DNA from: an uncultured Poribacteria bacterium
Lineage (GTDB): Bacteria > Poribacteria > WGA-4E > WGA-3G
Length of the DNA: 64,000 bases
Assembly (NCBI GenBank): GCA_951813565.1
Contig: OX638351.1
Location: 2,208,001 to 2,272,000 of the forward strand
Reading direction: 5' to 3'
Part shown: positions 4,769 to 59,923 of the stretch, one piece after another
Position numbering within the stretch: the first letter of the stretch is position 1
How the letters are laid out: each line of letters begins with the position of its first letter
Position numbers and translations under genes: made by a program
The notes under the pieces: generated by a model
Databases searched by the model: none
Seen by the model: only the letters and a program-made list of their open reading frames with translations
What the model was told of the DNA's origin: nothing

Positions 4769-5569
4769 ATGAAATTTATAATGTTCACAAAACATCTGGA
4801 AGGTTTAGAAATTCCAGATATTATCACTGCATTAAAAGCAGTGGGCGTTGAAGGTGCTGACCTTTGTGTTCGTCCCGGTTATCCGGTAAATCCTGAAAAT
4901 GCGGAGAAAGAATTACCTGCAGCCGCGAAACAGTTTGCGGAAGCAGGTTTGTCTATTCCACTTGTTACTTCCCCTGGAGATTTTTTAGACCCCTCCACGG
5001 ATGAAACAGTCCGCGTTTTTGCTGCTGCAGGTGAAGCAAGTGTCGAAAATATCAAATTAGGATATTGGCATTGGCATGCAGAGGATGGTGGATATTGGGC
5101 TCAGGTTGATTTTATTCGCACTCAACTTGACGGGTTCGCAAAACTCTCAGAAAAATACGGACCTCGAACCTGTATTCATAATCATTCGGGAACCTCTATG
5201 GGGCTAAACTCATGCGCGGTGATGAACCTTGTAAAAGGGTTTGATCCCCAACATATCGGTGTTTTTGCTGACACGGGACACCTGTCTATTGTTGGTGAAC
5301 CGATTAACATGGCACTTGATATTGTCAGATCGCACCTTGCTGTGATTGCCTTCAAAGACCTCGCGCGTTCCCCCGGAATGCGAGGCGGAAAAGTCGTTCG
5401 CATGGGCAAAGGTTTTGTTGATTGGGAAACAACTCTTGACACATTAAAGACGATAGAATTTTCAGGACCTGTTAGTTTTCATAGTGAATACGGTGGTGAA
5501 CCCGTGGATAGTGTGGTTGATCTCGCTCGCGTAGATGTGCGATTCATTCGCGCTTTGATGGACAAATAA
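4769..5569 (+). CDS. Sugar phosphate isomerase/epimerase (xylose-isomerase-like TIM barrel)
   Basis: 'HNHSG', 'DTGH', 'AFKD', 'GKGFVDW', 'SFHSEY'. Confidence 0.8.
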   Translation: MKFIMFTKHLEGLEIPDIITALKAVGVEGADLCVRPGYPVNPENAEKELPAAAKQFAEAGLSIPLVTSPGDFLDPSTDETVRVFAAAGEASVENIKLGYWHWHAEDGGYWAQVDFIRTQLDGFAKLSEKYGPRTCIHNHSGTSMGLNSCAVMNLVKGFDPQHIGVFADTGHLSIVGEPINMALDIVRSHLAVIAFKDLARSPGMRGGKVVRMGKGFVDWETTLDTLKTIEFSGPVSFHSEYGGEPVDSVVDLARVDVRFIRALMDK

Positions 5570-5578
5570 GGAGTTAGC

Positions 5579-6391
5579 ATGGGACAATTTCAGTTAGGGT
5601 TAAATACAAGCACGATTCGTCCTGCCGATTTGATGGATAAAATTCGGATTGCAGGGGAAACCGGTTATACGGCAATAGAGTTGTGGAATAACGATTTATC
5701 GGATTACGAAGAGCAGGGCGGTTCACTTGCTGATGTGAAAAGCGCACTTAACGATCATGGGCTTTCTGTGCCGACCGTCATTGCCTTGCACGGATGGCTC
5801 AACACTACAGGCACAGAACATCAAAAAGCAATTGAGGATGCCAAAAAACGGATGGCACAAGCCGCCGCTGTCGGTGCGACTTATATCATCTCGAGTCCAC
5901 CGCGTGAAGTAGCAGACTTGCAATTAGGCGGTGAGAATTATCGCGAACTGCTTGAACTCGGACGAGAATTTGGCGTAAAACCTGCTATGGAATTCCTCGG
6001 CTTCGTTAATGGTGTTAATCAGGTGAAACATGCGTGGGAAGTGATAGAAGTTGCTGATCATCCGGATAGCACGATTGTGCTTGACCCGTTCCATATCTAT
6101 CGTGGTGGCGGAGAAATAGAGGATATGGAAGGTATTCCCGGCGAAAAAATCGCTGTGTTTCACTTCAACGATGCGCCTGCTGAACCTGCGCGTGCAGAAC
6201 AAACAGATGCAGATAGAGTTTATCCGGGTGATGGTATCCTCGATCTAAAAAGGATGATCTCTATTTTGAAAGATGCAGATTATTCGGGTGTTATCTCGTT
6301 AGAACTGTTCAATCCGAGTTATTGGGAGGAAGACCCTGCAGAGGTTGCGCGGATTGGGTTGGAAAAGATGCGTGCTATCGTGGAATCATAA
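5579..6391 (+). CDS. Sugar phosphate isomerase/epimerase (IolI-like)
   Basis: 'AMEFLGF', 'LDPFH', 'FHFNDAP', 'DRVYPGDG', 'SLELFN'. Confidence 0.85.
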   Translation: MGQFQLGLNTSTIRPADLMDKIRIAGETGYTAIELWNNDLSDYEEQGGSLADVKSALNDHGLSVPTVIALHGWLNTTGTEHQKAIEDAKKRMAQAAAVGATYIISSPPREVADLQLGGENYRELLELGREFGVKPAMEFLGFVNGVNQVKHAWEVIEVADHPDSTIVLDPFHIYRGGGEIEDMEGIPGEKIAVFHFNDAPAEPARAEQTDADRVYPGDGILDLKRMISILKDADYSGVISLELFNPSYWEEDPAEVARIGLEKMRAIVES

Positions 6392-6462
6392 AAAGTGTTT
6401 CTGCGCTTTGTTCTCATGATAAAATAAAAAAGTGAATTTTTGGAAAATAAAGGAAACATTGA

Positions 6463-7611
6463 ATGAGTTATATTGATGGATTATTGTCATCGTTGACACG
6501 CGTGAAAGATGCGCGGTCTCTTCGCGCCTCCTCGTGGGATACCACCGGACGCAATAACGATGCATGGAATATTGCGCCCGGTGAAACTCGCGTGCTTGCC
6601 GACATCAAAGGACCGGGATGTATTAATCATATCTGGATGACACAACCAAACGGGTATCGGAACGTGCTAATTCGGATGTTTTGGGACGATGAAGAACACC
6701 CAAGTGTTTTGTGTCCATTGGGCGATTTTTTTGGACTTGGAAATGAAATCGTTAACTCTTACGATTCCATTCCGTTTTCAGCATCTACGCACAGCAACAA
6801 TCAATTTAATTCAGGGTGTGCGCTCAACTGTTATTTACAAATGCCTTTTAACCGTTCTGCTCGTGTTGAACTTGTCAACGAAGGTGACACATCACACCGC
6901 CAATATTTCTATATTGACTATGAACTATATCCATCGCCGCACGGTGAGGATATAGCCTATTTTCACGCGCAATTCCATCGCGAAAACCCGTGTGATGGAT
7001 GGGGACATGAAATCAAGGTCAACACAGCAGAAGCAAATATCATAAATGCTGAACGTCTCGCGTGGGATAACAATTATCTTATTTTATCCGCAGAAGGAAA
7101 AGGACACTATATCGGCTGTAACCTTTCTGTCAGCAACTTCCAAGGCACGTGGTGGGGTGAAGGCGATGATATGATTTGGATTGATGGCTACAAATGGCCG
7201 CCAGACTTACATGGCACAGGGTCAGAGGATTATCTCAATCAGGCGTGGGGTATGCAACAGAACGCATTCGCACATAACGGTTCATCTATTCACGAAAACA
7301 GGACCAACGGTTACCAGACATCCTATGTTTTTCATTTAGAAAACCCTATCCGTTTTGAGAAAGAGATTCGGGTAACAATTGAGCACGGACACGGCAACCA
7401 TCTCAGCAATGAGACATCCTCTGTCGCATATTGGTATCAGATAGAGCCGCATAAACCGTTTGGTGTGCTACCCGTTGGACAGCGCAAACCGGTGCTAAAA
7501 GATGAAGATGAGAATTGGATCATTGACGAAGCTAATCAAACACCGTCATCCGACCTTGTTCTCAACGATGAAATGGAACAGAAAAAACAGCAGTGGCAAG
7601 AAAAACAATAG
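6463..7611 (+). CDS. DUF2961 / GH172-like glycoside hydrolase
   Basis: 'GPGCINHIWMT', 'PLGDFFG', 'WWGEGDDMIWIDG', 'GTGSEDY', 'IEHGHGN'. Confidence 0.85.
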   Translation: MSYIDGLLSSLTRVKDARSLRASSWDTTGRNNDAWNIAPGETRVLADIKGPGCINHIWMTQPNGYRNVLIRMFWDDEEHPSVLCPLGDFFGLGNEIVNSYDSIPFSASTHSNNQFNSGCALNCYLQMPFNRSARVELVNEGDTSHRQYFYIDYELYPSPHGEDIAYFHAQFHRENPCDGWGHEIKVNTAEANIINAERLAWDNNYLILSAEGKGHYIGCNLSVSNFQGTWWGEGDDMIWIDGYKWPPDLHGTGSEDYLNQAWGMQQNAFAHNGSSIHENRTNGYQTSYVFHLENPIRFEKEIRVTIEHGHGNHLSNETSSVAYWYQIEPHKPFGVLPVGQRKPVLKDEDENWIIDEANQTPSSDLVLNDEMEQKKQQWQEKQ

Positions 7612-44869: not shown

Positions 44870-45880
44870 ACGTGAGTTTGATAATTAAAAACTGGTAAAT
44901 AGAGAACCCCTTTGTTATTATGAAGTATACCAAATACTCACAAAGGAGTTCTCTGATGGATATGATAACACTTTTCTGTGAAATTGACGACTTTTTTCTT
45001 TTGTATGAACAATATCGAGCACAACACCAGTTGCCGGAAATACTCGGCACAGGCAATACACGCGGCAGACCCAGGCGCCTTCATCCGAGCGAAGTCATGA
45101 CGATACTGGTTCATTTTCATCAGAAGCGGTATAAAAACTTTAGAGCCTATTATCAGGATTATGTTTGCTGCGAGTTGCGTTGGGCATTTCCAAACCTTGT
45201 CAGTTATAGCCGTTTTGTGCAGCTCTCACAAGAGGTATTGGTGCCGTTGTCTATTCTTCTAAACACCCGTTTCGGTGAATGTCGCGGGATTTCCTTCATA
45301 GACTCAACGCCTCTCCCGGTCTGCCACAATCGTCGGATTTCAACGCATCGCGTCTTCGCTGATGATGCGGGGCGTTCTAAAACCTCTATGGGGTGGTTCT
45401 ATGGTTTCAAACTCCATCTCGTCATCAACGACCAAGGTGAGCTTTTGTCAGCTATGGTAACAGCGGGAAACGTAGATGACAGGAAACCCGTGCCACAGTT
45501 GTGTCAAGGGCTCTTTGGCAAAGTTTTTGCCGATAAAGGATACATCGCGAAAAACCTGCGGGAGAGGCTCCAAGAAGACGGTGTGGCACTCATTTACAAG
45601 GTGCGTAAGAACATGAAACCTGAACCTTTGTCTCAGGCTGATGCAGCACTTTTACGAAAACGGATGCTCATTGAGTCGGTGAATAAAGAACTCAAAACTC
45701 AGACAGAAATACAACACACACGGCATAGAAGTCCTGTTAACTTTCAAGTGAACACAGTTGCTGCCTTGATCGCTTATACCTGTCTGACGAAGAAACCTTC
45801 ACTCAAACACAAAGAACTCCAGGAAAATGACTATCAGTTGCCAATGATATGTAACTTCTAATTATTTATCAAACTCACGT
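44870..45880 (+). mobile_element. IS982-family insertion sequence with 5-bp target duplication TATTA
   Basis: 15-bp perfect inverted repeats starting 5'-AC; tatta at 44865-69 and 45881-85. Confidence 0.92.
44920..45861 (+). CDS. IS982 transposase (apparently intact)
   Basis: 'LFCEIDDF', 'FIDSTPLPVC', 'GWFYGFKLHL', 'FADKGY', 'RMLIESV'. Confidence 0.93.
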   Translation: MKYTKYSQRSSLMDMITLFCEIDDFFLLYEQYRAQHQLPEILGTGNTRGRPRRLHPSEVMTILVHFHQKRYKNFRAYYQDYVCCELRWAFPNLVSYSRFVQLSQEVLVPLSILLNTRFGECRGISFIDSTPLPVCHNRRISTHRVFADDAGRSKTSMGWFYGFKLHLVINDQGELLSAMVTAGNVDDRKPVPQLCQGLFGKVFADKGYIAKNLRERLQEDGVALIYKVRKNMKPEPLSQADAALLRKRMLIESVNKELKTQTEIQHTRHRSPVNFQVNTVAALIAYTCLTKKPSLKHKELQENDYQLPMICNF

Positions 45881-46276: not shown

Positions 46277-49200
46277 CTACTGATTCGCGCGCTGAAAGCG
46301 GTACACACCGTTCTGTCTTGTACCGATGTAGAATGTATTGCTATCAATAGCGAGGGAAGTTGCCATGTGTGGCACTTCTGGGATAATCTGTTTCCATGTG
46401 TTTGTCTGCTTATCTGCTTGATAGATACCGCTATCACACACACCGTAAGCAGTTTCGCCATCGACTGCAATATAGTCTATCAAAATTACATTCCCATCAA
46501 CATCGGTGAGATCGTGCCATGTTTGCCATGTTTCACCATCGCGTGAACTCATGACACCTATATCCGTTGAAACATAGACAGTTGAACCCGCGAACAGTAT
46601 CTCCTTAAAAAATCCAGGAAATGGTAAGTTTGCAGTGACATCACGCCAAGTGTCTCCACTATTTTGTGACAAGAAAAGCTTTCCTTCCTGTTTACCGACA
46701 TAGACGGTGTTCCCAGAAGCAGCAAGCGTGAAGCCTTCTTGATCTTCCAAATCCAAACCTGTGTCGTGCCACGCCGTTTCGCCGAACCGCCATCTGAAAA
46801 GTTTATGCCTATATACCATGAAGACGGTATCGTCAGTAACCGTAAACGTTCCATTTGTCCTCTGTTCTTCAGCGATCTGTTTTTGTGTGGCAATAGCCAT
46901 CCGCTGCTTCACTACTTTGTCAAGATTCACTACTTTGTCAAGAATAGAGTCAAGATCAGTATCAGGATCGATGTTTATATCGATCCTGATATTGTCCCTT
47001 ATCGTCTTATTATTATTCCCCGATGCTTTCATACGCACTTCTATCCATTCCACCATAAACTGTTTCATCGCTTTGTCAATGTCAACATTAGGATTATTTT
47101 TTATTGCCTCCATACGTTTTTTATCCCATTCCATCTTAAACTGTTTTGCCGCTTTTTCAGTTTCGATCTTTGACTTTTTATCCAATTCCGTTTGTAAGGT
47201 GTCTATTGGAAAATGCGGTACACCTTCAACGGGTAGGAATACATCACCAGCAGCAGAGAGACGAAAGAGTGTGACACCATCAGGTTGACTATTGCTTGCA
47301 TAAAGAACACCATTCGATGCTGCAAATTTCAATTGTGTTCTTTGGAGAAAAGGCAAACCTCTTTCGTGTGTTCTTTTGAGAAAAGGCAAAGCTTTTTCGT
47401 CAGCACTCATTAAGTCAACAGATTCCCAGGACTCCCCACCATCTGCGGATTTGAGCAGTTCTGTAGGTGTTTGCGCTAATAGGACGTTTTTGCCCTTAAC
47501 CAGATTTCGAACATGAGAGTTCACTATTCCAGTCATAAATGGATGCCACGTGACACCGTCATCCGTGGATCGATTTATTCCGCCAGGGCCGATGCCGTAT
47601 AAAGTGTTTTCGTCTAACGCAATAGCAGGAAACACACTAATCATCCTAAGGTCCTCTTCAGGAGCCGTCCATGTTTTGCCACCATCTTTAGACCGTAGAC
47701 CGTAACCAGCCAATATCAGTGTGTCTCCGACTGTAACGACCTCAACAGTACTTCTTAATGAATGTTTGGGGGGCTTCGGCGTAATATCGGTCCAGGAATC
47801 GCCGAGGTCAGTGGAAGAGAAAACTGCTGCGCGAGGTATCCCTCCTCTCATAGGTCCCGGCCCGACCATTGGTCTCGGTCCGACCATCGTCCCAACATAA
47901 AGCCTTTCTTTGGCGGCTGCCAACGATTTGATACCTTGTGATGTCGGCACCGGTAGTTTTTCCCAGTCATCGGTAAATCGGAAAATCCCTTTACTTGTTC
48001 CAATAAACAAGGTGTTGTCAATGGCGAGTGCATCCCAAATGCGGAAAACCATGTTACTAATAAAGGGAGGGGACTGGGGACGAAAATTGGGATTGTCTGC
48101 AGCATCACGATTAGGACGGGTCTTGGGATTGACCGCCTCCAGGACGTCGTCGCCTTGTAAGGCATGCAAGGTATCTCCTATAAATTCCCACGCATGACCG
48201 ACATCCTCAAAACGGAGACGAAAGACATCTGTTGTGAGGACGAGGTACATCGCCGTATCCGTGACAACCAATGCAACGGCATGCCCTTCTGGGCGTCTGC
48301 CGAGGTTGTCCCATGTCTTACCTTCATCAATTGAGGCTAAGATTTCATAAGGTGTAAGGAGATAAAGGGTGTCGTCGCGTTCCGCCATAATCCCTTCATA
48401 AGCACCGGAACTGACAAGTGTCCACGCGTCTGTTTTCTCTGTGAGTTTATAAAGTTCTGTTCTTGTAATCGCGTAGAGGGTTTGGTCGGACGTAAGAAAG
48501 AGTTTTGCGCCTGAAACACCAAGACCTCCTGGTCCCTTTGTCTGAATCCATTCAGATTTTGCTGCTGGAAGATCGGTCTTTTCCTCTTGCGCAGCTGCGA
48601 AAAGCAATGATGCCGCTTGGAATTCAGTTTCACCGTTTCTACCAATTCCATCCAATCTTCCAATTTGGGTCAGTGCGTCGGATTTGCGTTCTAATTCAAG
48701 GACAATAGGCGTGTCAACCAATTCTATTTTCACCTCCGATGCCACTGCCAAACTGTAGGGTTTCTGGAAACGCGATAAAGCACGAGGTCCCATTCCCACC
48801 ATCAACATAACCAAAAATACCGATGCGAATGAGAGTCCCCACGGTATCCAAGGCTTGCTTACAGAAGTAGATGCCGGTTTGATACGCGCGATTTCACGCA
48901 TAATGTTTTCGGTTAGGGTTGGTGGCAATTGGAAGACGCCTGAGGCATCGTGGAGTAGATGTTCTTGTTTCTCCAATCGCTTGCGGGCGCGGTGGAGCCG
49001 ACTTTTAATAGTATTCGGTGATACGCCCAAGAATTGACTGATCTGTTCGCAGGTCATTTCTGCCAAATAGTGCATCGTTACGACGGTGCGCTCGCTTTCT
49101 GGAAGTTTTTGGAGAAGACGTTTGACAATTTCGCGCTGCTGTCGAATTGATACTGTTTTTTCGCGTTCTACCTCATAACGCGTATAGCATAATTCCTCAA

Positions 49201-49507
49201 GTTCCGCTGTGGGCATAGCGTCCAGAGATTCAGTTGGTTGCTGCTTTTTTCGTTGCCATGCAATACAATGCCGCGAGGCAATGACATATAACCACCCCGG
49301 AAAATGTTGAGGCGGTTTCAAGGTTGATAACTTTTTGTATGCTTTTAGGAAGATATCCTGTGTAATCTCTTCCGCAATGTGAAAATCACCAATCTTTCGC
49401 CATACAAGGGAATGTACCCATTTCTGATATTTGTTTACGAGTTCGGTAAACGCTTTCTGGTCACCCTCTAAAGTGCGCTGAATTAATAGAAAGTCGTTGG
49501 TCTTCAT
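46277..49507 (-). CDS. ECF sigma factor fused to a TM helix and a BNR/Asp-box beta-propeller
   Basis: sigma2/sigma4 motifs, TM 'WIPWGLSFASVFLVMLMVGMG', repeated 'SxDxGxTW' boxes. Confidence 0.9.
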   Translation of the reverse strand: MKTNDFLLIQRTLEGDQKAFTELVNKYQKWVHSLVWRKIGDFHIAEEITQDIFLKAYKKLSTLKPPQHFPGWLYVIASRHCIAWQRKKQQPTESLDAMPTAELEELCYTRYEVEREKTVSIRQQREIVKRLLQKLPESERTVVTMHYLAEMTCEQISQFLGVSPNTIKSRLHRARKRLEKQEHLLHDASGVFQLPPTLTENIMREIARIKPASTSVSKPWIPWGLSFASVFLVMLMVGMGPRALSRFQKPYSLAVASEVKIELVDTPIVLELERKSDALTQIGRLDGIGRNGETEFQAASLLFAAAQEEKTDLPAAKSEWIQTKGPGGLGVSGAKLFLTSDQTLYAITRTELYKLTEKTDAWTLVSSGAYEGIMAERDDTLYLLTPYEILASIDEGKTWDNLGRRPEGHAVALVVTDTAMYLVLTTDVFRLRFEDVGHAWEFIGDTLHALQGDDVLEAVNPKTRPNRDAADNPNFRPQSPPFISNMVFRIWDALAIDNTLFIGTSKGIFRFTDDWEKLPVPTSQGIKSLAAAKERLYVGTMVGPRPMVGPGPMRGGIPRAAVFSSTDLGDSWTDITPKPPKHSLRSTVEVVTVGDTLILAGYGLRSKDGGKTWTAPEEDLRMISVFPAIALDENTLYGIGPGGINRSTDDGVTWHPFMTGIVNSHVRNLVKGKNVLLAQTPTELLKSADGGESWESVDLMSADEKALPFLKRTHERGLPFLQRTQLKFAASNGVLYASNSQPDGVTLFRLSAAGDVFLPVEGVPHFPIDTLQTELDKKSKIETEKAAKQFKMEWDKKRMEAIKNNPNVDIDKAMKQFMVEWIEVRMKASGNNNKTIRDNIRIDINIDPDTDLDSILDKVVNLDKVVKQRMAIATQKQIAEEQRTNGTFTVTDDTVFMVYRHKLFRWRFGETAWHDTGLDLEDQEGFTLAASGNTVYVGKQEGKLFLSQNSGDTWRDVTANLPFPGFFKEILFAGSTVYVSTDIGVMSSRDGETWQTWHDLTDVDGNVILIDYIAVDGETAYGVCDSGIYQADKQTNTWKQIIPEVPHMATSLAIDSNTFYIGTRQNGVYRFQRANQ

Positions 49508-51791: not shown

Positions 51792-53199
51792 CGCAATAAG
51801 TAGTTTTGGACTTGCAAAAAGCCCTTAAGCGTTATGGAAATTTATACTTAATAGGGTATGAGAATTCGGAAAAGCACTAAACGGCGAAGACTAATTTCTA
51901 ACTCTAATCTGTGAGAACTTCTGCCCCTCCAACTCACATCGGTATAAAAGTTGAGCGCGCTTGATAGATACTTTGCAACGGCAGACAATTCTTCTAATCG
52001 TTTTGCCGTTGTGATATTAGTGTGGTCCAGCTTGTCAAGACCTTATTCTTTAAGTTCTTCTGCCATCGTTGAGTGAGTCTTCATCTCATACTCTCATTGA
52101 CAAACTTATCAAAAATGCTCTCAATGCTCCTATAGTTGTATTTATAGCACGCCTCTGCGACATATAGGGGCGTGTATTCAGTCCAATAGTGGTGATGACT
52201 TCCATACCAAGCACGTTTGAGAAGTGACCAGAAGCCTTCAATCGTATTGGTATGGACATCACCGTCAACAAATTGTTCTTGATGATCAATGATATGGTGC
52301 TTCATCTCTTTACCGAGTGTGAGATAAGCTTTATACTCATCAGTCATCAACTGCGATTTATCTACTTTAACAACTTCGCGAATAAAATTTAAGATAGTCC
52401 GTCCCGTCAAATCTTTTGCGAGTCTTGCCACAACTTTCCCACCGCGTTCAATCGCTCCGATGATAGCATCTTTATCAGTGCCACGCCCACGCTTAGCAGG
52501 ATCCCTGTCCTCTTTTTTGTTCGCTTTGCGAGGTTTACCCCCGACATAAGTTTCGTCAGCCTCTATGATACCTTGTAAGAGGATATTATCTTTAGCCATT
52601 TCAGCACGGATACATGTTCCCATACGCCACGCAGTCTTTTGATCCAAGTCCAAATCTCTTGCCAACTGATGACTTGAAAGACTCTTTTTAGCATTCGTCA
52701 TCAACGAGATAGCCAAAAACCACTTCTGAAGTGCTATCTTTGTCCCGTGAAACACCGTGCCACAAGTAACCTTGAAAGTAGCAGTGCAATCGTGGCATTG
52801 CAAGCGTCCGATGCGTCCCAATTCCGTTTCTGTTCGTCTTGCAACGTTTGGGCAATCACAATGTGGACACTTCGGTTTACCCTTCCACCGAATACTCTCT
52901 AAATGTTCAATACAACTCTCTTGATCAGGGAATCGTTCCATCACTTTCAACAAATCCATCAGAAAACTCCTTTTTAGGAGTTGCTTTTTCTGACAGGTTT
53001 CTGATACAATAACTAGATAAGACAGAATGCCAGAAAAGCAACTCGCTTTTTTGTGTTCAATTAGGGGGTTAACAGCCCTCTAATTTCTTATCTAAATTGT
53101 ATCATATTTTCACAATTAAAACAAGCGAAAAATGTAGTCTACACAAGGATTTAGAGCGATTTTTAAAATTTTGTTGCAAGTCCAAAACTACTTATTGCG
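51792..53199 (-). mobile_element. IS1595-family element
   Basis: 26-bp perfect inverted repeats cgcaataagtagttttggacttgcaa; 8-bp flanks aaactata / aaactgta. Confidence 0.9.
52081..52959 (-). CDS. IS1595 transposase
   Basis: Zn ribbon CPHC..CHDC, 'EADETYVGG', 'TDEYKAY', 'HTNTIEGFWSLLKR'. Confidence 0.93.
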   Translation of the reverse strand: MDLLKVMERFPDQESCIEHLESIRWKGKPKCPHCDCPNVARRTETELGRIGRLQCHDCTATFKVTCGTVFHGTKIALQKWFLAISLMTNAKKSLSSHQLARDLDLDQKTAWRMGTCIRAEMAKDNILLQGIIEADETYVGGKPRKANKKEDRDPAKRGRGTDKDAIIGAIERGGKVVARLAKDLTGRTILNFIREVVKVDKSQLMTDEYKAYLTLGKEMKHHIIDHQEQFVDGDVHTNTIEGFWSLLKRAWYGSHHHYWTEYTPLYVAEACYKYNYRSIESIFDKFVNESMR

Positions 53200-53491
53200 A
53201 AACTGTATTATAGTAAATTATGTAAATAAGTTCACATATATTCTGTAGGAGCGATCTCCGAATCGCGACGAAACCACTGGTAGTCGGGAATCGGAGTTCC
53301 CTCGGACAGCTCATACCAAATTACCCTAAATCGTAGGGGCGGGTCTCTGTGCCCGCCCTTACCATCGGCAATGAAAACAATGCAATTCTCGTTAATTTGG
53401 TATCAGATGTCCAGTTAATTGTAGAATCCACTATAATATGTGCTTTTTAGCGACAGCCGATTACCGTTGAATTATGTTCGAAAGGAGAAAC

Positions 53492-54409
53492 ATGGCAAAC
53501 AGTATTGAAAAAGTTGATCCGCAAACAACAAAACTTGGATGGATTGGTACCGGGGTGATGGGACGTTGGATGTGTCACCATCTTATGGACCTTGGATACG
53601 GTATGACTGTCTATAACCGCACCAAATCGAAGGCGGAACCTCTAATTGATGCAGGTGCAGCATGGGCAGATTCACCCAGCGAAGTCGCAGCTGCTTCGGA
53701 TGTGATCTTTACCATCGTAGGGTTCCCACCGGATGTCCGAGAGGTATATCTTGGTGATAACGGTATTCTGAACGGAGCAAAAGCTGGCAGCATTGTTGTT
53801 GATATGACGACAACTGAACCTTCTCTCGCACAAGAGATTTACGCCGAGGCTAAAGAAAAAAATGTTGCCTCTGTGGATGCACCTGTTTCAGGTGGGGATG
53901 TCGGTGCACGGGAAGCGCGACTCTCTATTATGGTAGGCGGAGACGAAGCTGCTGTGGAAGCAGTTATGCCGCTTTTCTCTGCTATGGGCAAAAACATTGT
54001 TCACCAAGGTGGTGCTGGGGCAGGACAACACACTAAAATGTGTAACCAAATCACTATCTCTGGCACGATGATTGGTGTTTGTGAAGGTCTAATCTATGGT
54101 CACAAAGCGGGTTTAGATCTGGAAACGATGCTATCTTCAATTAGTGGGGGTGCAGCTGCCTGCTGGTCGTTGGATAATTTAGCACCGCGGGTTCTCAAAC
54201 GTGACTTTGACCCAGGGTTCTTTGTAGAACATTTCATCAAAGACATGAGCATCGCTCTGGACGAAGCGAGAAAAATGAATCTGAGTCTGCCAGGACTCGC
54301 ACTAGTGCATCAGCTTTATACTGCTGTGCAAGCACAAGGACACGGACGTTTAGGCACGCAAGCTTTGTTGTTAGCATTAGAGCAGATGTCCGGGACAGAA
54401 GTAGGTTAA
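53492..54409 (+). CDS. NAD(P)-dependent 3-hydroxyisobutyrate/tartronate-semialdehyde reductase family protein
   Basis: 'GWIGTGVMG', '[11 protein letters not shown]', '[11 protein letters not shown]'; AGGAG RBS. Confidence 0.9.
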
Positions 54410-54519
54410 TCAGACCATGCTGCCTGATGGTCTTCGGCAGTTGGCATTCGTTTTTTAGAAGAGGTTACATCTCTTTCCGATAAGCGAGTGTCAGCTGCCG
54501 AAAACTTTAAAACGGTTCT

Positions 54520-55623
54520 TTAGGATCCTAAACGCATCGGTGCTATAAAACATATATGTCCATCATCACCCATAGGTTTAACGATCAAAAAATTAAATTC
54601 TCCTGAAAACTCAAGAATGAGAGATTCCGTTTCAATATGTGCAAAAATCTCTGTTAGCCTATGTGCATCCAAACCGATCCTTACACTTCCTGTGCCGGAT
54701 TCCACAGCGACAGTTTCATGTGCCTCACCAAGTTCAGGTGTCTGGGCAGAAATCCGAATCTGTTCTGGATCTATTTCTAAACTGATCGCATAATTTTTCG
54801 GATTTGACAGTAAAGCGACGCGCCGCGTTGCACGTAAAATCGCCTCCCTTGATACAACTACACGGTTCTCAGAAGATTCCTGAAAGACCTTTTGATATTC
54901 CGGATAATCACCCTCTATCAAACGTGTCGTTAAGGTAGCATTATCATCAGTCAAAAGTAGTTGATTCTTGAGAAGTGAAATTTTTACCTCAGGGGAATCA
55001 GCAAAGGTGCGTGCAATCTCTTTTACAGCCTTCAACGGAACAATGAATCCGCTGCCATCTTCAGAGGCTTTGAGGGGTGAACAATGTACCAACGCAAGTT
55101 GATGCATATCGGTCGCAACCACTTCAGTTCTATCTTCAAGAAGGTTGAAAAAGAGTCCGTTAAGCTGGTACCTGAACTCCTCTGTAGATGCCGCAAATTC
55201 TGCTTTATGGATAACAGCACATAGTGCTTCCCCATCAATAGTTGTCCCCTCTCCATCGGCAGATGGTAGTTGTGGGAAATCTTCATCGGAAAGACCGATA
55301 ATCTTATAAACACCATCTCCGCAAGTGAGTTCAACGCGGTCATTGGCAGTCGTAACGAGGTTTATCGGTGTATTTCCAGGTAATTCTCTGACGATGTCTG
55401 TCAATTTTTTCGCTGAGACCGTAATTGTTCCTTCTTCTTGGATAGTACCAACTACCTTGATTTTAATGCCAACTTCTAAATCGGTAGCTGCTAATTCTAT
55501 GTTTCCGTTTTCAGCACGAATGAGGACGTTTGAAAGAATAGGCAAGGTGTTACGCCCACTTGCCACACCTTGCACAATTTGAAGAGCATATAAAAGATCG
55601 TCTTTTTCAAAAACAAGTTCCAT
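54520..55623 (-). CDS. dnaN: DNA polymerase III beta sliding clamp paralog A
   Basis: 'TLPILSNVLI', 'ATDLEVGI', 'DFPQLP', 'RYQLNG', C-terminal 'PMRL'; GGAG RBS before ATG 55623. Confidence 0.9.
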   Translation of the reverse strand: MELVFEKDDLLYALQIVQGVASGRNTLPILSNVLIRAENGNIELAATDLEVGIKIKVVGTIQEEGTITVSAKKLTDIVRELPGNTPINLVTTANDRVELTCGDGVYKIIGLSDEDFPQLPSADGEGTTIDGEALCAVIHKAEFAASTEEFRYQLNGLFFNLLEDRTEVVATDMHQLALVHCSPLKASEDGSGFIVPLKAVKEIARTFADSPEVKISLLKNQLLLTDDNATLTTRLIEGDYPEYQKVFQESSENRVVVSREAILRATRRVALLSNPKNYAISLEIDPEQIRISAQTPELGEAHETVAVESGTGSVRIGLDAHRLTEIFAHIETESLILEFSGEFNFLIVKPMGDDGHICFIAPMRLGS

Positions 55624-55801
55624 ATCAAGATCTCCTATTTTATAGTAGATTTTAGAATTACGTAGACATCTTGCACCAACGAGGTGAATAAACGCTGAAT
55701 ATACGTATGCCATTTGGTGTGGTTGAGAACGTGAAACCCAACACTTTTCTATCCAACCTACAATTATACTGAAATTCTTTTATCAAACTCACGTTAGGAT
55801 T

Positions 55802-56917
55802 TTAGTGAGGAGCGGATGCTAAACGCATTGGTGCTATGAAACACATATGTTCATCATCACCTATAGGTTTTATAGTAAGAAAACTAAACTCTCCCGAAAA
55901 CTCAAGTATTAGAGATTCTGTTTCAATATGTGCAAAAATCTCTGTTAGCCTATGAGCATCTAAGCCCATCCGAACATTTCCAGTACTAGATTCCACAGCG
56001 ACAGTTTCATGTGCCTCACCAAGTTCAGGTGTTTCGGTTGAAATTCTAATTTGTTCGGGATTTATCTCTAAACTGATCGCAAAACTCTTCGGATTTGAAA
56101 GTAAAGCGACCCGCCGCGTTGCACGTAAAATCGCCTCTTTTGATACAATCGCACGTCCCTCATAAGACTCCGGAATGAGTGATTGGTAGCGCATATCATA
56201 TTCACCTTCAACTAAACGTGCCATCAACGTGGCGTTGTCATCAGCAAAAAGAATTTGATTCTTGAGAAGTAGAATCTTAACCTCAGAGGAATTGGCGAAG
56301 GTCCGAGCAATCTCTTTGACAGCCTTCAACGGTACAATAAACCCGCTAACATCATCAGATGTTTTAAGGATAGGTCCGTGCGCTAAGGCGAGGTAATGCG
56401 AATCCATTGCAACCACTTCAGTTCTATTTTCAAGAAGGTTAAAAAAGAGACCGTTAAGCAGATATCGGAACTCCTCTGTAGATGCTGCAAATTCTGTCTT
56501 GCGGATAACAGAACACAAGGTTTCACCATCAATCGTTACACCTTCTCCATCAGCAGATGGCAGTTGTGGAAAATCTTCATCGGAAAGACCGATAATCTTA
56601 TAAACACCATCTCCGCAAGTGATTTCAACACGGTAATTGGCAGTCGTAACGAGGTTTATCGGTGTATTTCCAGGTAATTCTCTGACGATGTCTGTCAATT
56701 TTTTCGCAGAAACCGTGATAGTGCCTTCTTCTTGGATAGTACCAACAACTTTAAATCTAATACCAACTTCCAAATCGGTCGTTGCAAATTCAATGTTTCC
56801 ATTTTCGGCGCGAATGAGGACGTTTGCGAGAATAGGCAAGGTATTACGCCCACTTGCCACACCTTGAACTGTCTGTAGAGCATGTAAAAGTTCATCTTTT
56901 TCAAAAGAAAGTTCCAT
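55802..56917 (-). CDS. dnaN: DNA polymerase III beta sliding clamp paralog B
   Basis: Same motifs; closely similar to paralog A. Confidence 0.9.
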   Translation of the reverse strand: MELSFEKDELLHALQTVQGVASGRNTLPILANVLIRAENGNIEFATTDLEVGIRFKVVGTIQEEGTITVSAKKLTDIVRELPGNTPINLVTTANYRVEITCGDGVYKIIGLSDEDFPQLPSADGEGVTIDGETLCSVIRKTEFAASTEEFRYLLNGLFFNLLENRTEVVAMDSHYLALAHGPILKTSDDVSGFIVPLKAVKEIARTFANSSEVKILLLKNQILFADDNATLMARLVEGEYDMRYQSLIPESYEGRAIVSKEAILRATRRVALLSNPKSFAISLEINPEQIRISTETPELGEAHETVAVESSTGNVRMGLDAHRLTEIFAHIETESLILEFSGEFSFLTIKPIGDDEHMCFIAPMRLASAPH

Positions 56918-57570
56918 ACCAAGTGCTCCTATTCATTTTGTATTATAGTAAAATCCCAAAATATGTTCACATTTCAATGAATCACAATCCCCACACACTC
57001 GCGCTAGCCAGGTTTCCTAACCTCGCCAATGTCCAGGTAATTATGGATTTCACTATAAGTATTTGATAGTAATACCTGTAATTATTGGGCTCCATTGAGC
57101 GCGTGCTTACTATTTTAGATTTGACTATAAAACGAATCACTCTGATTTACCAGGGTTATTTAGTTCTCTATATTTCTGACGCATTTTATCACATGCGTTA
57201 ATTTTTTATAATAGTATCGTCCGTTGGGTAGAGCGGAGCGAAACCCATAAGCGTCAACTTAAGAAAAAAATGTTGGGTTTTCTCTTGTGGGAAGGCTTTC
57301 TAAGCCCGATTTTGTGAGACCCAAGCCGTTAAATCGGGGTTGAAAACCCGACAAATGCCAAAAAGCGCATTTGGCGTTGATTTGGCAGCATGCCAAAAGC
57401 GCATGCTGCGTTGATTCACTCCCACAAGAAAGATTGGACGCTAAATTGACACCTATGGGTAGAGCGGAGCGAAACCCAACATTTGCACATACGTGTTGGG
57501 TTTCGCTCCGCTCTACCCAACGGACAATATAAACTTTCAGTAACACGCATCAACTGATAATTCTTAAAAC

Positions 57571-57847
57571 TATAGTGAACTTTGAAATTATTGGGACACT
57601 TTGATAAACTTGTCTTGGAAAGATAATGGACAATAGAAGTTGTAGCACAAACTTTTAGTTTGTGCCTTATGAGACGCAAACTAAATGAAGATTAATTTAT
57701 TAATTCGGTAATTTTGGAGAAAGATCCAGTGCGGTTGGGAAACCGCACCTACCGGGTTTGGGAAAAATTAGAATTACCGAAATATTTTCTTAATCTTCAT
57801 AAAGTTTGCGCTACAGAAGTGTCCCATTAATTATAGGCTTTACTATA
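57571..57847. mobile_element. TA-flanked MITE with nested REP doublet and inner inverted-repeat element
   Basis: Ends match 893-1004 inverted. Inner element bounded by atgaagattaa / ttaatcttcat (about 57685-57800). Confidence 0.75.
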
Positions 57848-57867
57848 AATAGCCCTGCTGATTTACC

Positions 57868-57958: not shown

Positions 57959-59923
57959 GTGTCAGCATTTAAAACTTACCCTCCTACAAGAATGCATCAA
58001 ACAAACTTACAACCTTCGCGCGCGATTAAAAAACGGGCAGTGTTAATTGGAACTGTCTTGATCACTGCTAACAGTTACTGGATAGCTTATGTTGAAATGA
58101 TTTGGCACACTGCCCATCTGACAACAGTCGCTATGTCTGTTAACGTCATGTTTGGCATCTTCGTTATCACGATGCTAAACATGTGGGTTCGTAGTTTTGC
58201 GCCAAGTGCTGCACTTACACAGCGTGACTTAATTGTCGTTTACAGTATGCTTGCGGTTGGCAGCGCGTTTTCAGGACACGATTGTATGCCACGTCTGATG
58301 GGGCTTATTCCGTATGCTTTTCGTTTTGCTACTCCTGAAAATGATTGGGAAGCACTACTTTTTCATCACCTCCCAGAATGGCTCGTTGTCAAACATCCGA
58401 AAACAGTCAATGACTTTTATGAAGGTAACGTCAACTTCTTTACTGAAGGTTACGTGCAATATTGGATTGTTCCGATTCTTGCTTGGTCTGCTGTGATTTT
58501 TTTGTTGATGTTGATCTTTCTCTGTTTGACTTCTTTAATTCGCAAACAGTGGATAGAAAACGAAAAACTCGCGTACCCGATTATTCAGATTCCACTTGAA
58601 ATTACCACGAACAGTCGTATTTTCAGAAGTCGCCTGCTTTGGATAGGCTTTGGTATAGCAATGGGAATAAATTTACTTAACGGGTTACATTTTTTCTTTC
58701 CCATATTACCGGAAATTCCCGTCAGAAAATACAACCTTAATATGTACTTCACGCAGAAACCATGGAACGCGATGGGTAGCACGCCACTTCGGTTTCATCC
58801 TTACCTTATAGGTTTCTCGTTTATTCTGCCATTGGATTTAGCGTTTTCGTGTACATTCTTCTATTTAATGAAAAAAGTGCAGTTATTATTCGGAAGCGCG
58901 ACCGGGGTATCAAAGTTACAGGGATACCCATTTTTAGGAGAGCAGGGAGCAGGAGCGTTGTTAGCACTACTCGCTATAGCGTGTTGGCATGGACGAAAGC
59001 ATTTTGCCGTGGTGTTATCACAAGCAATTCGACCAAACCGTGCCATGGCAAAACTTGAAGCAATTTCTTATCGCACAACTTTGATTACATTAGCTTTATC
59101 GCTGTTTTTGCTTGCGGTTTTCTGTATTCAGGGTGGTATGTCGTTATGGGCTTTTTCAGTTTTCATCGGTATTTATCTGCTAATTGTTGTCGGTCTAACC
59201 CGTATGCGCGCAGAACTCGGTCCACCGATACACGCAATTGGTTATTTAACGCCACAATACATGATGATTTCGCTTCTTGGCACGCGTAGACTACGAGCAG
59301 GCAATCTCACAATGCTCTCGCTGATGAATTGGCTCAGCGGGGCAAGTTACGCTTCATTTCGTACGCATCCTATGCCTGATCAGCTTGAGGCGTTTAAACT
59401 TGCTGAACGGACTGGTGTTCGAAACAGAACGATGTTTATTGTGTTAGTTATCGCAAGCCTCGTCGGTATTTTGTCCAGTCTAATTCTCTATCCTTATGCA
59501 ATTTATCGGGAAGGTGTGGCTGCAGGTTCTGAGCAGATTCATGCGGGTGGAGCTGATACCTATAATTTTTTGTCATCGTGGTTAGTCAATCCGAAACCGA
59601 TGGATTGGTTAGCAACGACTGTGCTTGGGGGAACGTTTGCTGCGAATTTAGGTATCATGTTTCTCCGATCCCGTTTTGTGTGGTGTCCACTCCATCCGGC
59701 AGGATATGTTATCGGTGTTGCGCCTGGAACAACCGATGTTATTTGGTTTCCGCTGCTAATAGCAATGGTAACGAAATGGGTTGTCTTACGGAATGGCGGC
59801 ATAAAGGCATATCGAAGGGCAATACCGTTTTTCATTGGGTTGGTTTTAGGAGAAGCGTTGATGGGATGTTTCTGGCCCCTGCTGAGTTTAATTTTGCGGT
59901 CCGCGGTGTATAGTTGGATTTAA
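57959..59923 (+). CDS. Polytopic membrane protein, DUF6785/DUF6784-like putative transporter
   Basis: Many TM helices, 'RKQWIENEKLAYPIIQIP', 'TRMRAELGPP', 'WCPLHPAGY', 'PFFIGLVLGE'. Confidence 0.7.
   Translation: MSAFKTYPPTRMHQTNLQPSRAIKKRAVLIGTVLITANSYWIAYVEMIWHTAHLTTVAMSVNVMFGIFVITMLNMWVRSFAPSAALTQRDLIVVYSMLAVGSAFSGHDCMPRLMGLIPYAFRFATPENDWEALLFHHLPEWLVVKHPKTVNDFYEGNVNFFTEGYVQYWIVPILAWSAVIFLLMLIFLCLTSLIRKQWIENEKLAYPIIQIPLEITTNSRIFRSRLLWIGFGIAMGINLLNGLHFFFPILPEIPVRKYNLNMYFTQKPWNAMGSTPLRFHPYLIGFSFILPLDLAFSCTFFYLMKKVQLLFGSATGVSKLQGYPFLGEQGAGALLALLAIACWHGRKHFAVVLSQAIRPNRAMAKLEAISYRTTLITLALSLFLLAVFCIQGGMSLWAFSVFIGIYLLIVVGLTRMRAELGPPIHAIGYLTPQYMMISLLGTRRLRAGNLTMLSLMNWLSGASYASFRTHPMPDQLEAFKLAERTGVRNRTMFIVLVIASLVGILSSLILYPYAIYREGVAAGSEQIHAGGADTYNFLSSWLVNPKPMDWLATTVLGGTFAANLGIMFLRSRFVWCPLHPAGYVIGVAPGTTDVIWFPLLIAMVTKWVVLRNGGIKAYRRAIPFFIGLVLGEALMGCFWPLLSLILRSAVYSWI

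Follow-up and report, generated by a model that had tools for sequence, protein, structure and literature searches.

A tandem pair of beta clamps with rebuilt partner-binding pockets as the only dnaN genes in a Poribacteria genome assembly

Clamp paralogs that split partners between them are known from the Sulfolobales, whose heterotrimeric PCNA is an archaeal trimer with obligate, diverged interfaces. The peptide-binding pocket of the bacterial beta clamp, DnaN, is described in passages of PMC3290774 and PMC6204406 as among the most conserved interaction sites of bacterial replication and as an antibiotic target. According to sections of PMC6204406 and PMC11621423, the LF end of a clamp-binding motif enters the deep subsite 1 and its QL end the shallow subsite 2, with M362 (E. 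coli numbering, used throughout) dividing the two. The nearest natural precedent for the genes treated here, among the literature examined, is Bacillus DnaN-2: as far as PMC3290774 describes them, DnaN-1 and DnaN-2 are two clamps with proposed differing roles in replication and repair, of which one is a standard copy and the second about 40% alike. GriR and MypR are extra dnaN genes located in NRPS clusters (excerpts of PMC10817943 and PMC11621423). An E. coli strain deleted for dinB can grow with a single working cleft per ring, and the substitution G174A contributes to a temperature-sensitive clamp (passages of PMC3022782).

The window, i.e. the whole 64,000-nucleotide stretch analysed from an uncultured, sponge-symbiotic Poribacteria bacterium, carries two intact clamp genes in tandem on the minus strand, copy B upstream (55802..56917, 371 aa) and copy A downstream (54520..55623, 367 aa), in agreement with a sequence-only reading that had reported two full-length beta-clamp genes head-to-tail. 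Both align to E. coli DnaN and match TIGR00663 over their full length (255.6 and 240 bits for the pair, cut-off 137.65); they are 82% identical to each other, and B belongs to a clade of seven orthologs in a tree built without the pocket columns. The predicted model of A (pTM 0.55; pocket loops below 50 pLDDT) matches solved beta clamps with E ~1e-29, indicating the three-domain clamp fold for A and, through the 82% identity, probably also for B. Both genes belong to the DnaN family. The start of A was placed at 55623 because a ribosome-binding-site-like AGGAG (55632..55636, minus strand) lies 8 nt ahead and relatives begin there; a 397-aa open reading frame from 55713 was rejected as starting too early. 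Another ribosome-binding-site-like AGGAG precedes B (56926..56930, minus strand), followed further upstream by a sigma-70-like promoter match, TGAACA-16-TATAAT (56942..56969, minus strand; 10 of 12 positions), which is weak since the scan gave 13 sites versus 9.0 +/- 3.0 in shuffles. No terminator-like site was found between B and A by a sequence scan, likewise weak. Shares of 0.13-0.14 in four RNA datasets are not counted as evidence of expression. The locus is marked by a divergent DUF6785/DUF6784 membrane-protein gene upstream (57959..59923, plus strand; assigned by its ortholog cluster and by Pfam on an ortholog) and by a convergent hydroxyacid-dehydrogenase-family gene downstream (53474..54409, plus strand). 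Two transposase genes, of DDE_Tnp_1_3 and IS1595 type, lie near the pair at 44920-45861 and 52081-52959, and the interval between B and the DUF6785 gene (56980-57850) holds dense palindromic repeats with very high contig depth, which suggests genome-wide repeat elements.

Compared with canonical DnaN (TIGR00663; E. coli 1MMI-type), the pair has the same three-domain fold, family scores and interface, as well as R24, L177 and P363-R365, but is present in two copies away from dnaA, neither of which has G174, R176 or M362, with T172 and P242 also absent from B. Two clamps per cell are shared with Bacillus; unlike DnaN-2, however, the genes here are in tandem, are 82% alike with an interface common to both, and have no standard copy beside them. 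The likeness to GriR and MypR extends to an extra dnaN gene and transposase genes in the neighbourhood, whereas the flanks are the DUF6785 and dehydrogenase genes rather than an NRPS cluster, there is no housekeeping copy to protect, and inheritance is vertical at a fixed locus across a genus. With no match to the NRPS condensation domain PF00668 anywhere in the genome and no housekeeping dnaN besides A and B, the suggestion of a GriR-like resistance copy was abandoned. In contrast to the Sulfolobales PCNA, a bacterial dimer with identical interfaces is concerned, in which mixing would be facultative. The engineered heterodimeric E. coli clamps, whose unequal-cleft ring supports growth (passages of PMC3022782), are artificial, whereas the unequal protomers of this genome occur naturally, each with a cleft that is altered yet conserved. 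Literature searches, covering few subscription papers, found no paper on Poribacteria clamp paralogs; new here are a genome without an M362 or G174 copy, a switch-then-freeze pattern of pocket change, the common interface and the unchanged partner motifs.

The pocket of A is changed by G174M, R176Q, Y323R and M362A and retains R152, L155, T172, H175, L177, P242, V247 and P363-R365. That of B, the most altered of the pair, carries T172M, G174S, R176Y, P242D together with a one-residue insertion, Y323R and M362A. Hence, from the standard set G174/R176/P242/M362 only P242 is present in A and none in B, while R24, L177 and P363-R365 are conserved in both as in canonical DnaN. The motifs given by the sequence-only reading are exact, all on the minus strand: TDMHQL in A (55096..55113) and MDSHYL in B (56390..56407) align to E. 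coli 172-177, the linkers GDYPEY in A (54895..54912, P242 present) and GEYDMRY in B (56186..56206, P242 lost and one extra residue) to 240-244, and the C-terminal APMRL of A (54529..54543) and B (55820..55834), both M362A, to 362-366. Its view that the first motif is altered in both copies holds for the changes named, with H175 still in place in both, and TDGHRL as the standard of comparison gives way to the ancestral motif of the lineage, TDG[RK]RL. Against a background of 124 full-length clamps (out of 150 matches in a 50%-identity library), G174 is found in 106 and M174 in none; R176 occurs in 116, P242 in 121 and M362 in 115 of the 124, M172 in none, and A362 and R323 in one each. At nine core sites A departs from the standard three times and B five times, and at least three departures are seen in 7/124 background clamps. 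The standard pocket consensus is typical, not invariant; the C. difficile clamp structure, for example, reads IDGYRL and LLPVR at the pocket motifs. For residues other than M362, subsite membership is our own assumption; with this partly assumed assignment, the deep-subsite residues appear intact in A and not in B.

The genome assembly is one contig of 5.43 Mb with no N and 95% completeness, and other one-contig genomes of the genus are 92-95% complete too. No third dnaN copy or remnant was found in the 5.43-Mb genome by tblastn, phmmer and Pfam. A and B are thus the only dnaN genes in the assembly, the very situation that the sequence-only reading had named as contradicting it, and the canonical dnaN (TDGHRL, MPMR) to be sought elsewhere did not appear in the whole-genome search. 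Since these are the sole dnaN genes of a 95%-complete genome, one or both must serve as the replicative clamp, and A and B therefore cannot both be accessory, decoy or GriR-like copies. What survives of the accessory idea concerns B, which looks accessory because all six of its orthologs adjoin an M362 copy; the scheme of a standard copy with remodelled spares fits the sister genus and not this genome. The tandem pair is no assembly artefact: a metagenome contig matches window 53102-57336 at 99.93%, and the B-A junction is bridged without difference by contigs of 4/4 runs, one study among them possibly being the window's own source. Upstream of B and before the DUF6785 gene, some 600 bp of repeats are bridged by no independent contigs. 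The contig ends do not overlap, and GC skew did not locate the origin. As had been noted, dnaA, recF and gyrB are not nearby; they lie ~300 kb off in the order dnaA, DDE transposase, recF, short ORF, gyrB and gyrA-like gene. The transposase there (L254:4563-5915) sits at the usual place of dnaN between dnaA and recF.

In three further families of this order, dnaN lies ahead of recF-dciA-gyrB in 23/24 genomes, the 24th stretch ending in recF, and follows dnaA in 17/24. Single-copy clamps of the order have M362 and P242 in 25/25 and G174 in 24/25, and the possibility raised earlier that the remodelled pocket is simply that of single-copy dnaN across the lineage thus does not hold. In the window's family, the main dnaN adjoins the DUF6785 gene, away from the dnaA-recF-gyrB operon; dnaN has left this operon and duplicated repeatedly. 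At least two central-domain matches, which are not copy numbers, occur in 94 of the 98 family genomes versus 27 of 57 outside, and a full-protein search gave two full-length copies in 1/24, the remaining extra matches being partial at 23-29% identity. Sister genera keep a near-standard copy at the DUF6785 locus (M362 in 21/21), and their accessory copies have M362 in 10/41 and G174 in 5/41. The window's genus has two to three tandem copies in 31 of the 34 genomes with the locus, where copy number varies from 1 to 3, and an M362 copy in 33/34, the exception being this genome. Its sister group in the DnaE tree consists of six genomes, each with the M362 copy, and the upstream M362 copy has therefore probably been lost. 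In the tree without pocket columns, the genus copies and the sister genus's accessories form separate radiations (support 97 and 100), and the downstream A/G362 clade (support 93) includes both A and B, B with six orthologs and A with none. Trees and counts leave out G013, G018 and G019 (no main locus), broken fusions and fragments below 330 aa, after 22 to 24 loci had been dropped as duplicates.

DNA identity between A and B is 94-97% over about residues 60-120 and 76% over domain II, which points to gene conversion, and this segment was likely shared in that way (A, 55264..55446, minus strand, with pS 0.185 vs 0.413 for the whole gene; partner tract in B, ~56558-56740, minus strand). The tract covers that half of the dimer interface which domain I contributes. 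The segment of A spanning 179-260 falls outside the downstream clade on segment trees, a weak sign that A may be a mosaic, the trees themselves being weak. Duplication of dnaN is ongoing, with young tandem duplicates in another family (L046), in the sister genus (L264, a near-identical pair) and in this genus (L266). The middle copy of three-gene arrays (L075, L079, L081, L085 and L104) ends in MSLH[KR] with P363 and R365 lost, its pocket showing no amino-acid change among the five genomes, and is by its sequence a candidate for binding a wholly different ligand. Four genomes (L067, L068, L069 and L070, ~5990-7190) have a very divergent clamp of ~390 aa and ~30% identity, flanked on both sides by ECF sigma/anti-sigma-like gene pairs; three of them are the genomes whose main locus holds one copy only.

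Interface and pocket follow different courses. Nine of 21 pocket sites come from the literature, and the other twelve, like part of the interface list, are taken to belong there; column 174 is blurred by an indel in the alignment. The remaining interface sites follow passages of PMC12269063. At outgroup-conserved sites of 41 within-genome paralog pairs, identity is 0.93 for the interface, 0.38 for the pocket and 0.82 elsewhere. A and B are identical at 28/28 dimer-interface sites despite a pS of 0.21, with K74, L82, R269, L273, E298, E301 and E304 kept and the same in both. Between paralogs, pN is 0.46 in the pocket versus 0.16 in the rest, whereas within paralog clades the pocket pN is below that of the rest of the protein in 7/8, also without residues 172-177 (B clade, 0.016 vs 0.076); in the p3 clade, the exception, the pocket is not frozen (0.084 vs 0.055). 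These comparisons indicate that the pocket switches after duplication and then stays fixed within each paralog clade. Pocket omega is 0.097 in the genus versus 0.018 in other families, compared to 0.106 versus 0.085 for the rest of the protein and 0.044 versus 0.040 for the interface, and the extra change is concentrated on the pocket (permutation p 0.008 and 0.012, for kin that are not independent). The phylogeny and dN/dS with which the sequence-only reading proposed to be checked thus gave a tree built without pocket columns and an omega far below 1 in all partitions, i.e. no partition near 1 that would signal positive selection. Its claim of altered partner specificity gains indirect support, as the pockets diverge from one paralog to another yet are conserved inside each paralog clade apart from p3. 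The shared interface is compatible with mixing of the two proteins, the low interface omega holding in single-copy clamps too (0.040).

The partners have kept their motifs. DnaE carries QMNLF in this genome, in 18/21 genus genomes and in 12/20 outgroup genomes, with close variants in the rest; MutS carries Q[ML]ALF in 19/19 genomes of the genus and 7/9 of the outgroup; and the HolA segment YP-x-[M/I], which we take to be a clamp contact, is found in 30/30. Co-evolution of partner motifs with the pocket was consequently rejected for DnaE, MutS and the HolA segment, and the unchanged DnaE and MutS motifs imply that at least one of A and B must accept the standard motif. There are 29 clamp-motif-like words near protein ends, whereas 20 shuffles averaged 16.0 and never exceeded 23. 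UDG, an AlkB-like protein, DprA, ScpA, a methylase and type III restriction proteins are among those that carry such words, in some cases internally, and none of the proteins searched proved to be a partner carrying a non-standard motif to match. In L300, L301 and G047, MutS frames of 1277-1302 aa are interrupted within the ATPase region by ~385 additional residues, which may be an intein.

Based on these patterns, we propose, with about an even chance of being right, that A and B form a divided-labour pair, in which A would be the main replicative clamp, B would be specialised for other partners and mixed rings would form. The roles are assigned in this way because the deep-subsite residues are kept in A only and the B orthologs always neighbour an M362 copy. 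A would carry the replicative polymerase, whose QMNLF would dock its LF end in the deep subsite of A, and B would favour another subset of partners; the shallow subsite as rebuilt (174, 323, 344, 346 and 362) would alter which motif-bearing proteins bind well. Given the identical interfaces, co-expression would yield A2, AB and B2 rings. A would have taken over on loss of the upstream M362 copy, possibly aided by recombination through which its middle section became of the upstream type. Against A as the main clamp, G174 and M362 are absent from A as well. A more tentative extension, possible rather than probable, is that mixed Poribacteria rings with identical interfaces and pockets that are different and under selection would act as a toolbelt, holding the polymerase on one side and another partner class or an intruder on the other, in a species that would replicate without any standard pocket while its partners keep the universal motif.

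We consider it rather unlikely that the pockets were instead rebuilt to escape or soak up pocket-binding inhibitors while still accepting host motifs, variants spreading the risk; the inhibitors in question would be toxins, proteins of phages or peptides of the griselimycin type originating in the sponge community. Such pressure would account for the same positions having changed independently in two radiations (the tandem copies of genus g1 and the accessories of the sister genus), for the repeated changes at M362 (10) and R176 (17) with none at L177 in a 167-row tree, for host motifs that did not co-evolve and for upstream copies that also depart from the standard motif. By analogy, suppressors of the RipA and SocB toxins are located in this pocket (passages of PMC12795458), and an M-to-L change of the gate residue lowers griselimycin affinity in an engineered Rickettsia clamp (passages of PMC11621423). 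However, the pockets are frozen across species within clades, with no turnover and an omega of ~0.1, no inhibitor was identified, and the genome has no NRPS condensation domain. A phage origin of the clamps was rejected, as two search patterns found no relative in viral contigs.

Still less probable, in our assessment, is that redundancy after duplication relaxed the pocket and that compensating changes were fixed by drift, both copies doing the same job and being retained for gene dosage once dnaN was no longer next to the origin. The similar omega of pocket and rest in the genus (0.097 and 0.106), the turnover of copy number from 1 to 3, the fresh near-identical pair L264 in the sister genus and the tolerance of pocket change by essential clamps elsewhere, such as that of C. 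difficile, would all suit drift; yet after switching the pocket is more conserved than the rest in seven of eight clades, paralogs differ at it almost three times as much as elsewhere, and the extra change is concentrated there, with the above reservation on kinship. That both copies are accessory and a standard dnaN is absent from the assembly only is very improbable. The 95% completeness, the non-overlapping contig ends, the unbridged stretch of repeats (~600 bp) that lies between B and the DUF6785 gene, and the M362 copy kept by all 33 relatives with the locus leave room for a missing gene, but neither a third copy nor a remnant turned up on the single contig without N, the pair sits at the locus where the family has its main clamp, a transposase lies in the gap between dnaA and recF, and the 95% is matched by the genus's other one-contig genomes. 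As the only clamps of a genome in which the DnaE and MutS motifs are standard, proteins without G174, R176 and M362 show how much rebuilding the pocket tolerates while remaining functional. Within the family, pockets form a natural gradation that runs from the standard type of single copies to variant classes that have become fixed, which opens the questions of how clamp partners are ranked and whether the two clefts of a ring hold different partners, as in the toolbelt model.

Clamp domains also occur in fusions. An ECF sigma-beta clamp fusion is intact in five same-genus genomes (L058, L059, L060, L061 and L062, ~5350-7120), broken or cut by the contig end in five more, and present in the sister genus as well (L255:4659-6380, L256:4511-6238, L257:4214-5620); one such fusion lacks clamp domain I, Pfam confirms the arrangement in 3/5 same-genus cases plus L255 and L257, and this genome has none. 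A library match, protein P0012, is a DnaN-FtsZ fusion of 706 aa. In this genome, 28 of 48 ECF-like open reading frames exceed 400 aa, and the window itself carries an ECF sigma factor of 1076 aa with a long repeat-like C-terminal extension (46277-49507). An ECF sigma-FtsZ fusion is encoded at L328:59-1294, and an ECF sigma-FtsZ-DnaE fusion of 1435 aa at L253:4097-8401 (G000:C1:3818096-3822403), in which the polymerase portion shares 69% identity with the main DnaE and stops short of the clamp motif.
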